A DNA stretch of 6,595 bases from Escherichia coli (GCF_003334815.1 NZ_QOWO01000068.1); one strand, 5' to 3'. Positions 4,329 to 6,509 are shown, numbered from the stretch's first letter. Program-made: numbers and translations. Notes: a model not told the origin generated them from the sequence alone.

Positions 4329-4736
4329 TTACACGACCTGTACACGTCCGCCGAACCCGGAACGCAACAGAGCTTCGTGGGCATCCCGATCCGGGTCGTA
4401 GCAGCAGTCCTGGACCAAACGCACGTCGTAGTCCGCATCACTAGCCCAGGCGACGCTTGAAAGAACAACGCCGGTGGTGCTTATCCCGGCCATGACAAGC
4501 GTGCTTACGCCGCGCGTCCGAAGGTCGGCGTCGAGCGCCGTGCCATAAAAGACGCTGGCTCGCGGACATGCATAGAAAAGGTCGCCCCGTTCGATCGCAA
4601 GCCCTTCGACGGGCAGACCGGTGCGAAATCGTCCGCTCGGGAGATACGGTGAGATTTGGCGATTCGTCGCCGGCGGCGCATGTTCATACTCTTCGCCGAG
4701 CGAAAAGTTGGGGAACAGCACGGGCCGGCCGCGCAA
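4329..4736 (-). pseudogene. Isochorismatase-family (cysteine-hydrolase superfamily) gene remnant, 5'-truncated; encodes only the C-terminal ~135 aa
   Basis: Translation contains FYGTALDADLRTRGVSTLVMAGISTTGVVLSSVAWASDADYDVRLVQDCCYDPDRDAHEALL, matching the conserved C-terminal core of isochorismatase-like hydrolases. The N-terminal third of such a protein is absent and the 5' end overlaps the tnpA' fragment. The Met at 4736 is probably fortuitous. Confidence 0.5.
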
Positions 4737-6476
4737 GGCGTGCTGGCAGCCGTGCAGACCCTGCGTGAGATGAACGCCGACAACCTGCGCAAGGTGCCGG
4801 CCGATGCACCCACGGCCTTCATCAAGCCGCGCTGGAAGCCGCTGGTGATCACCCCGGAAGGCCTCGACCGGAAATTCTACGAAATCTGCGCCCTGTCCGA
4901 GCTGAAGAACGCCCTGCGCTCCGGCGACATCTGGGTCAAGGGCTCGCGGCAGTTCCGCGACTTCGACGACTACCTGCTGCCGGCCGAGAAGTTCGCCGCA
5001 CTCAAGCGCGAGCAGGCCCTGCCCCTGGCGATCAACCCGAACAGCGACCAGTACCTGGAAGAGCGTTTGCAGCTGCTGGACGAGCAGTTGGCCACCGTCA
5101 CCCGCCTGGCCAAGGACAACGAGCTGCCCGATGCCATCCTCACCGAGTCAGGGCTGAAAATCACCCCGCTGGATGCGGCGGTGCCGGATCGGGCGCAGGC
5201 GCTGATCGACCAAACCAGCCAGTTACTGCCGCGCATCAAGATCACCGAACTGCTGATGGACGTGGACGACTGGACGGGCTTCAGCCGCCACTTCACCCAC
5301 TTGAAGGACGGGGCCGAGGCCAAAGACAGGACGTTGCTGCTGTCCGCAATCCTCGGTGATGCGATCAACCTCGGGCTGACCAAGATGGCCGAGTCGAGCC
5401 CCGGCCTGACCTACGCCAAGCTGTCCTGGCTGCAAGCCTGGCACATCCGCGACGAAACCTATTCGGCGGCCTTGGCCGAGCTGGTCAACCACCAGTATCG
5501 CCACGCCTTTGCCGCCCACTGGGGCGACGGCACGACCTCATCCTCCGATGGCCAGCGCTTCCGCGCGGGTGGCCGGGGCGAGAGCACCGGGCACGTCAAC
5601 CCGAAGTACGGTAGCGAGCCGGGACGGCTGTTCTATACCCATATCTCCGACCAGTACGCGCCGTTCAGCACCCGCGTGGTGAATGTCGGCGTCCGCGATT
5701 CCACCTATGTGCTCGACGGCCTGCTGTACCACGAGTCCGACCTGCGGATCGAGGAGCACTACACCGACACGGCCGGCTTCACCGATCACGTCTTTGCCCT
5801 GATGCACCTGCTAGGCTTCCGCTTCGCGCCGCGCATCCGCGACCTCGGCGAAACCAAGCTGTACGTGCCGCAGGGCGTGCAAGCCTACCCGACGTTGCGC
5901 CCGCTGATCGGCGGCACCCTGAACATCAAGCACGTGCGTGCCCACTGGGACGACATCCTGCGCCTGGCCAGCTCGATCAAGCAGGGCACCGTCACCGCCT
6001 CGCTGATGCTGCGCAAGCTCGGCAGCTACCCGCGCCAGAACGGACTGGCCGTGGCCCTGCGCGAGCTGGGCCGGATCGAGCGCACGCTGTTCATCCTGGA
6101 CTGGCTGCAAAGTGTTGAACTGCGCCGCCGCGTGCATGCCGGCCTGAACAAAGGTGAGGCGCGCAACTCGCTGGCCAGGGCGGTGTTCTTCAACCGCCTT
6201 GGGGAAATCAGGGATCGGAGCTTCGAGCAGCAGCGCTACCGGGCCAGCGGCCTCAACCTGGTGACGGCGGCTATCGTGCTGTGGAACACGGTGTACCTGG
6301 AACGCGCCACCCAGGGGTTGGTCGAGGCCGGCAAGCCGGTGGACGGCGAGCTGCTGCAATTCCTGTCGCCGCTGGGCTGGGAGCACATCAACCTAACCGG
6401 CGATTACGTCTGGCGGCAGAGCCGCAGACTGGAAGACGGGAAGTTTCGGCCCTTACGGATGCCCGGAAAACCTTAG
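4656..6476 (+). CDS. tnpA: Tn3-family (Tn1721/Tn21-subgroup) transposase, 5'-truncated (tnpA'); C-terminal ~600 aa including the catalytic region
   Basis: 606-aa ORF with Tn3-family TnpA C-terminal motifs (...[33 protein letters not shown]...[41 protein letters not shown]...WNTVY...). Its stop TAG at 6474-6476 is embedded in the 38-bp terminal IR. Full-length family members are about 990 aa, so the N-terminal DNA-binding portion is missing. The true 5' homology boundary lies somewhere near 4656-4750. Confidence 0.85.
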
Positions 6477-6509
6477 CGTACGATTTTTTCCGAATTCTGC
6501 GGGCTCCCC
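6472..6509. repeat. 38-bp terminal inverted repeat of the Tn1721-type element (outer end at 6509), containing an EcoRI site
   Basis: CTTAGCGTACGATTTTTTCCGAATTCTGCGGGCTCCCC; reverse complement GGGGAGCCCGCAGAATTCGGAAAAAATCGTACGCTAAG. It overlaps the tnpA' stop codon, and GAATTC inside the IR is a recognised Tn1721 hallmark. Confidence 0.85.

Follow-up and report, generated by a model that had tools for sequence, protein, structure and literature searches.

The truncated tnpA gene and 38-bp inverted repeat beside tet(A) in an Escherichia coli sequence correspond to the known right end of Tn1721, probably a relic of two-ended insertion

Tn1721 is described as a transposon with three 38-bp inverted repeats (IRs), a partial duplication of its transposase gene tnpA and a pecM-tetA-tetR platform at the right end (PMC6205034, PMC5736529, PMC4899885), and its origin is traced to two copies of Tn1722 around tet DNA, one of which was then partly deleted (PMC5736529, PMC6205034). 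We analysed one strand of a 6,595-nt stretch of Escherichia coli DNA (NZ_QOWO01000068.1, GCF_003334815.1; hereafter the window, meaning this whole stretch), in which a truncated tnpA (tnpA', or delta-tnpA) runs into a 38-bp IR (IRR-II, or IRtet1721). Judged by its sequence, this feature is the long-known canonical tnpA'/IRR-II right terminus of Tn1721, already described, and an earlier note on the same DNA overlooked its identity with this textbook end. The terminus is very probably the relic of a two-ended insertion, the interior of which has been remodelled and in which tnpA' is dead.

The window shares with the right end of prototype Tn1721 (X61367, Allmeier et al. 1992) the IR, the 5,489-bp segment and a tnpA remnant of 1,786 bp that is broken at an identical point, but it lacks the left part of the transposon (Tn1722: the left-hand repeat IRL, mcp, res, tnpR, tnpA and the first right-hand repeat IRR-I), and the neighbour of position 1021 is an IncP-1alpha oriV, whereas it is IRR-I in Tn1721. 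The closest described locus is the "Tn21 - IncP-1alpha oriV - deltaTn1721" arrangement, with delta-tnpA and IRtet1721, in the colicin Ib operon of pO111-CRL115 and pO26-CRL125 (Venturini et al. 2013, PMC3817090), from which the window does not differ, the colicin-operon flank past 6509 included. The R1215-type island of IncM plasmids in mucB (Blackwell et al. 2016, PMC4899885) likewise has tnpA'-IRR-II as a fixed right edge, a remodelled interior and a 5-bp duplication; unlike the window, it has kept IRL, and Tn21/Tn1696 DNA adjoins IRR-I in place of the oriV relic. The partial Tn1721 of pAsa10 (PMC5736529) shares the tet region, tnpA' and IRR-II and has no transposase of its own, but its inverted second IR and 5-bp direct repeat (GTCTG) make it a true non-autonomous mini-transposon and a natural precedent for trans-mobilisation of the tet region, in that case two-ended. 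The window contains no such inverted IR pair with a 5-bp direct repeat (TIME-like or pAsa10-like), and neither IRL nor IRR-I of Tn1721 was found in it, as would be needed for a complete autonomous element (IRL with mcp, res, tnpR and a full tnpA). It does contain what distinguishes the tet end of Tn1721, i.e., a right-hand IR with an internal tnpA stop, and a 3' tnpA duplicate of about 1.8 kb together with pecM-tetA-tetR in a 5.5-kb segment.

The arrangement is common. More than 5,000 plasmid records matched the region, 80% or more of the window is covered in 2,284 records, and the IncK2/Z/I complex contributes at least 15 sequenced plasmids with 100% identity over all 6,595 bp, including pMRY16-002_3 and pO111-CRL-115. 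Among the matches sampled, the commonest limits were 1021-6509 (5,489 bp), which prevail in the upper part of the ranking. The parts of the window that concern the terminus are as follows (the layout combines the gene annotation of the best-matching plasmid, NZ_AP017613.1, with our own sequence scans).

1021-6509, no strand assigned: Tn1721 tet segment, 5,489 bp (relaxase remnant, tetR, tetA, pecM/EamA, isochorismatase', tnpA', IRR-II)
4329-4721, minus strand: isochorismatase-family gene, 5'-truncated (annotation; Pfam Isochorismatase model positions 79-162 of 175)
4656-6476, plus strand: open reading frame (ORF) under study, 606 aa, TTG start (ORF call)
4656-4723, plus strand: non-tnpA leader of the ORF, 23 codons (no tnpA similarity left of 4721-4724)
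4724-6476, plus strand: tnpA' (delta-tnpA), Tn1721/Tn1722 codons 406-988 and TAG (100% nucleotide identity to full-length tnpA)
5547-5549, plus strand: first catalytic Asp, codon GAT (Tn4430 TnpA alignment)
5766-5768, plus strand: second catalytic Asp, codon GAC within HYTDTAG (Tn4430 TnpA alignment)
6156-6158, plus strand: catalytic Glu, codon GAG within LNKGEA (Tn4430 TnpA alignment)
6472-6509, minus strand: IRR-II (IRtet1721), 38 bp, outer end at 6509, overlapping the tnpA' stop (exact match)

The intact 988-aa "TnAs1 family" tnpA of pYDC637 (L003 7787-10753) served as the full-length reference; the tnpA of pFBAOT6 was unsuitable because of an ISApu2 insertion close to its 3' end. Window positions 4724-6509 are identical to the reference tnpA and its IR at 1,786 of 1,786 nucleotides in one unbroken alignment; similarity to full-length tnpA stops at 4721-4724, with none further to the left. 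The breakpoint falls at codon 405/406 (window position 4724 is gene nucleotide 1215, the third base of codon 405); 583 of the 988 codons are kept (406-988, the C-terminal 59% of the protein) and the first 405 are lost. No frameshift, stop or substitution relative to the pYDC637 gene was found in tnpA' (4724-6476), and its 582 encoded residues are identical to the C-terminal part of the 988-aa TnpA. The ORF start at 4656 is purely mechanical, being the first TTG codon to follow a stop further upstream, and ORF codons 1-23 (4656-4723) are foreign DNA, namely the antisense strand of the truncated isochorismatase-gene remnant. This remnant lacks approximately the first 78 profile positions and is annotated as a 130-aa coding sequence, the start codon of which lies exactly at the tnpA' junction. 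Because the isochorismatase gene and tnpA are cut at the same point, a single deletion fused two truncated genes head to head, which fits the accepted origin of Tn1721 from two Tn1722 copies around tet DNA (PMC5736529). A second frequent class of plasmid matches to tnpA, mostly in Klebsiella pneumoniae and with the gene unannotated, begins at window position 4957-4960; here the transposase gene has a shorter truncation, distinct from that in tnpA'.

In the full-length TnpA, the Pfam scan detected DUF4158 (residues 6-169) and DDE_Tnp_Tn3 (residues 580-966); in the ORF it detected DDE_Tnp_Tn3 over the complete model (positions 1-389 of 389, E = 1.3e-155) and no DUF4158. For the related TnpA of Tn4430 the structure has been solved, with D679, D751 and E881 as the catalytic triad, DBD1 as the "key determinant of the specificity" and the recognition helix of DBD2 at residues 261-267 (PMC9579193). 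The fragment aligned to residues 406-981 of this protein (E = 3e-153), and all three triad residues are present in it: D679 corresponds to D298 of the ORF (D680 of the full-length TnpA), D751 to D371 (D753) and E881 to E501 (E883). Mapped by homology onto Tn4430 TnpA, the 405 missing residues include both domains that read the IR (DBD1 and DBD2); the part that is retained includes the catalytic domain, the scaffold domain, R635 (a DBD4 contact) and the dimerisation tail at the C-terminus. It is therefore well founded, as far as homology can tell, that the fragment would be unable to recognise the IR alone.

The structural claims of the earlier note were thus largely borne out. Its truncated tnpA with a conserved C-terminal catalytic region has a complete DDE_Tnp_Tn3 domain, an intact triad and no frameshift; the N-terminal region for IR recognition is indeed missing (DUF4158 by the Pfam scan, DBD1 and DBD2 by homology to Tn4430), and the 38-bp IR next to it, said to be complete, has no mismatch. 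Its phrase "catalytic-domain-only" is roughly right but understates what is left, as some 174 residues that precede the Pfam DDE domain are kept as well. The extent of 4656-6509 that it gave is correct at the right end; at the left end, tnpA begins at 4724, not at the TTG codon. That the fragment is probably inactive alone was a sound inference, given the loss of the IR-reading domains and the lack of a start or promoter.

A functional TnpA has about 1,000 residues with its own start and expression signals, and tnpA' falls short of this. The consensus promoter scan found no sigma-70-like promoter in 4150-4900, and a reading of the sequence revealed nothing convincing as a ribosome-binding site ahead of the ATG codons in frame at 4680 and 4770, from which we infer that tnpA' is unexpressed. 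As it has neither a start nor a promoter of its own and has lost the N-terminal IR-reading domains, the fragment would yield no working transposase. The Tn5 inhibitor protein is an N-terminally truncated transposase with a dedicated start and promoter and a proven regulatory role. Like tnpA', it lacks the N-terminal DNA-binding part and keeps the catalytic and multimerisation regions; unlike it, tnpA' lacks expression signals. A comparable role for tnpA', expressed as a truncated protein that joins TnpA dimers and modulates transposition, would agree with the intact frame over 583 tnpA codons and with the retention, by homology, of the C-terminal tail, which is one of two interfaces through which Tn4430 TnpA dimerises (PMC9579193). 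We give this idea next to no chance, in view of the missing promoter-like site and the lack of convincing ribosome-binding sites; the perfect identity of tnpA' to tnpA is expected of a recent or gene-converted relic and is uninformative about selection.

The IR itself (GGGGAGCCCGCAGAATTCGGAAAAAATCGTACGCTAAG) occurs once in the window, at 6472-6509 on the minus strand with 0 mismatches, and in none of 200 shuffled sequences was such a match obtained by chance. It is the same sequence as the IR that adjoins full-length tnpA in pYDC637 and in L014, a locus with the canonical Tn1721 arrangement, in which a second IR copy (IRR-I), preceded by tnpA sequence, lies directly left of the tet segment. 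The stop codon of tnpA' (TAG, 6474-6476) falls within the IR, as does that of the full-length gene. The two Tn21-family IRs of the window, IRmer (39-76) and IRR-II, are direct and not inverted repeats; IRmer is oriented as IRR-II and is therefore unusable as its partner end.

Among the plasmid matches listed that extend to the right end, nearly all terminate at 6509, and eight different sequences, several of them AT-rich, directly follow this position in the sampled plasmids. The 5-bp flanks are GAGTG in the window, TTTAA in IncHI2, TTCCA in a Salmonella plasmid typed as IncFIB, TATTA in IncX1, AAATT in a K. pneumoniae IncF plasmid, CAGTA in a K. pneumoniae IncFII plasmid, AAATA in IncL/M and TATAT in IncN. 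New DNA has therefore come to adjoin IRR-II on many occasions, each time exactly at the IR. In two of these backbones the partner end was found. An IncL/M plasmid carries Tn1721 IRL 38 kb to the left, and the AAATA outside IRL is repeated outside IRR-II, both within mucB, which matches the R1215 history of Blackwell et al. (PMC4899885). In the IncHI2 plasmid pS38, IRL is 47.5 kb away and its outer flank, TTAAA, is the reverse complement of the TTTAA at IRR-II. Both islands share the Tn21 IRmer - oriV - tet interior of the window. IRL and a 5-bp duplication in IncL/M and IncHI2 therefore indicate an ordinary two-ended insertion of Tn1721, with the interior rebuilt afterwards.

Several observations weigh against this reading. 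The target duplication could be sought in just these two contexts, and an IncX1 plasmid has IRR-II as a solo IR. In pO111-CRL115, neither IRL nor IRR-I of Tn1721 occurs anywhere in the plasmid, and the 5-bp flanks are not duplicated (GGGTA at the Tn21 repeat IRtnp vs GAGTG at IRR-II), so that the original insertion cannot be reconstructed there. In addition, it is a consensus promoter scan and sequence reading from which the silence of tnpA' is deduced.

The pO111-CRL115 locus also provides the case for a hybrid transposon, i.e., for a unit from Tn21 IRtnp to Tn1721 IRR-II that moved in the parent plasmids by means of Tn21 TnpA in cis. The locus is bounded exactly by IRtnp (L007 5463-5500) and IRR-II in inverted orientation, with an intact 988-aa Tn21 tnpA inside, and the enzymes and IRs of Tn21 and Tn1721 have been stated to be interchangeable (PMC3817090). 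On the other hand, the two IRs agree at only 27 of 38 positions and the two TnpA proteins are 73% identical overall and 65% in the N-terminal region that is lost here; target DNA was deleted at the pO111-CRL115 insertion site (PMC3817090); IncL/M and IncHI2 have the same interior within Tn1721 IRL and IRR-II; and NZ_AP017613.1, the best-matching plasmid, has lost the tnp end of Tn21 beside IS26. The original authors took the locus to have been assembled by recombination within IR boundaries (PMC3817090), which fits it better than hybrid transposition does. A hybrid transposon thus seems very unlikely, and we rejected it as a general route because of the missing duplication in pO111-CRL115 and the Tn1721 IRL/IRR-II bounds in the two other backbones.

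The earlier note had proposed that one-ended or trans-complemented mobilisation could help to explain the spread of the tet module. In the form considered here, TnpA of Tn1721 or TnAs1, supplied in trans, would act on the lone IRR-II and carry the module with variable adjoining DNA into new replicons. The literature that it relied on does exist: one-ended transposition is documented for Tn21-group (Tn21-subgroup) elements, according to the titles of Motsch 1985 and Avila 1988. The perfect IR could in principle be a substrate, full-length tnpA of the TnAs1 type is present on many plasmids (most of those sampled in the lower ranking carry one), and some plasmids have IRR-II but no partner IRL (pO111-CRL115, IncX1). 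One-ended products reportedly carry a 5-bp target duplication at both the IR end and the non-IR end. No 5-bp repeat pairs the left boundary with the IRR-II flank in the window (TAGAT/GAGTG), in L008 (CTCTC/TATTA) or in L010 (GCGCC/AAATT). Nor are the left ends variable, as those of one-ended products should be, but consist of a few fixed junctions with the tet segment, each common to 156 to at least 1,572 records (oriV, 1,226 plasmid records; IRR-I, at least 1,572; intI1 truncated in the 5'-conserved segment, 5'-CS, 156; pRiA4b-ORF3, 190). As an account of tet spread the proposal was not supported, given these discrete left junctions and IRL with a 5-bp duplication, the signature of two-ended insertion, in both testable contexts (2/2), and we regard one-ended transposition as an improbable contributor.

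The left junctions deserve attention in their own right. The 1020|1021 junction was compared at window 1016-1030, L014 6752-6800, L010 2990-3010 and L008 7990-8010, and four unrelated left contexts (IRR-I, IncP-1alpha oriV, intI1 cut after 19 nt, and pRiA4b-ORF3) meet the tet segment at this point. The C at 1021, with which IRR-I ends in canonical Tn1721, is kept in all four, and the unique tet DNA begins at 1022 with TATCT. Two ideas were tried and rejected. Flanks that differed in each of three contexts spoke against 1021-6509 as a moving unit that carries a target duplication of its own, and a hidden left IR at 1021-1058 was dismissed because, on visual comparison, some 8 of 38 positions match the IR. 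To our knowledge, ordinary replicative transposition never detaches an IR from its original flank, and junctions without IRR-I therefore lack an explanation by that route. It is conceivable that 1021-6509 relocates by an undescribed TnpA-dependent route, in which transfer proceeds from IRR-II to a nick at a directly repeated IRR-I; a transfer ending at such a nick would account for the common left boundary of the four contexts. We consider it extremely unlikely that this, or the related possibility that tnpA' is an inhibitor-like partner of TnpA, is correct.

The history that we favour is an ordinary one. The second Tn1722 copy would have lost IRL, res, tnpR and the first 405 tnpA codons by deletion, which left tnpA' as a dead 3' remnant, and IRR-II would be the fossil of a two-ended Tn1721 insertion. 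Other transposons, IS26 and homologous recombination would then have remodelled the interior of the transposon in situ, the end itself staying fixed. In the window, tnpA'/IRR-II closes the published Tn21 - oriV - deltaTn1721 locus of IncK2/Z/I-type E. coli plasmids. Today the module probably moves mainly with its host plasmids or via recombination through long identical segments, for which the 1.8-kb tnpA' may offer a homology patch to any Tn1722/TnAs1 copy. As the tnpA'/IRR-II end has been known since about 1980-1992 and the exact locus was published in 2013, the feature has little weight as a discovery. The IRR-II boundary with its 5-bp flank is nevertheless a stable landmark for independent Tn1721 insertions, by which tet(A) resistance-island lineages can be traced across plasmid families, and the intact IR and the homology patch are potential handles for further rearrangement where a Tn1722/TnAs1 copy is present.

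The remainder of the window consists of the following features.

1-43, plus strand: 3' end of merR (annotation of the best match)
39-76, minus strand: Tn21 IRmer, outer end at 76, directly past the merR stop codon (exact 38/38 match)
77-1020, no strand assigned: IncP-1alpha oriV relic, bridging Tn21 and the Tn1721 tet segment (described for the identical pO111-CRL115 sequence in PMC3817090)
1046-1288, plus strand: 80-aa ORF between oriV and tetR, labelled "transposase" or "relaxase" (WP_000844627.1)
1320-1970, minus strand: tetR(A)
2076-3275, plus strand: tet(A)
3307-4191, minus strand: pecM/EamA
from 6510, no strand assigned: colicin-operon backbone

The oriV relic contains repeated iterons of the type TGACAGATGAGGGGCG / CCCCTCAAGTGTCAA, and its host plasmids are non-IncP and have no trfA. 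The 80-aa ORF is probably a gene remnant that is present in every copy of the tet segment. IS4321 and IS5075, members of the IS110 family of insertion sequences, target the IRs of Tn21-family transposons. In some relatives, such as the IncL/M plasmid p11A17009_A_KPC (L012 20044-21300), IS4321/IS5075 lies directly after merR, where an intact IRmer was undetectable, and IRR-II is untouched. In pS38 (L015 14659-21098), mcr-1-pap2 and ISApl1 have Tn21 IRtnp on one side and Tn1721 IRL on the other, and mcr-1-pap2 therefore lies inside the former limits of Tn1721, within which there is now a multiresistance island of 47.5 kb.

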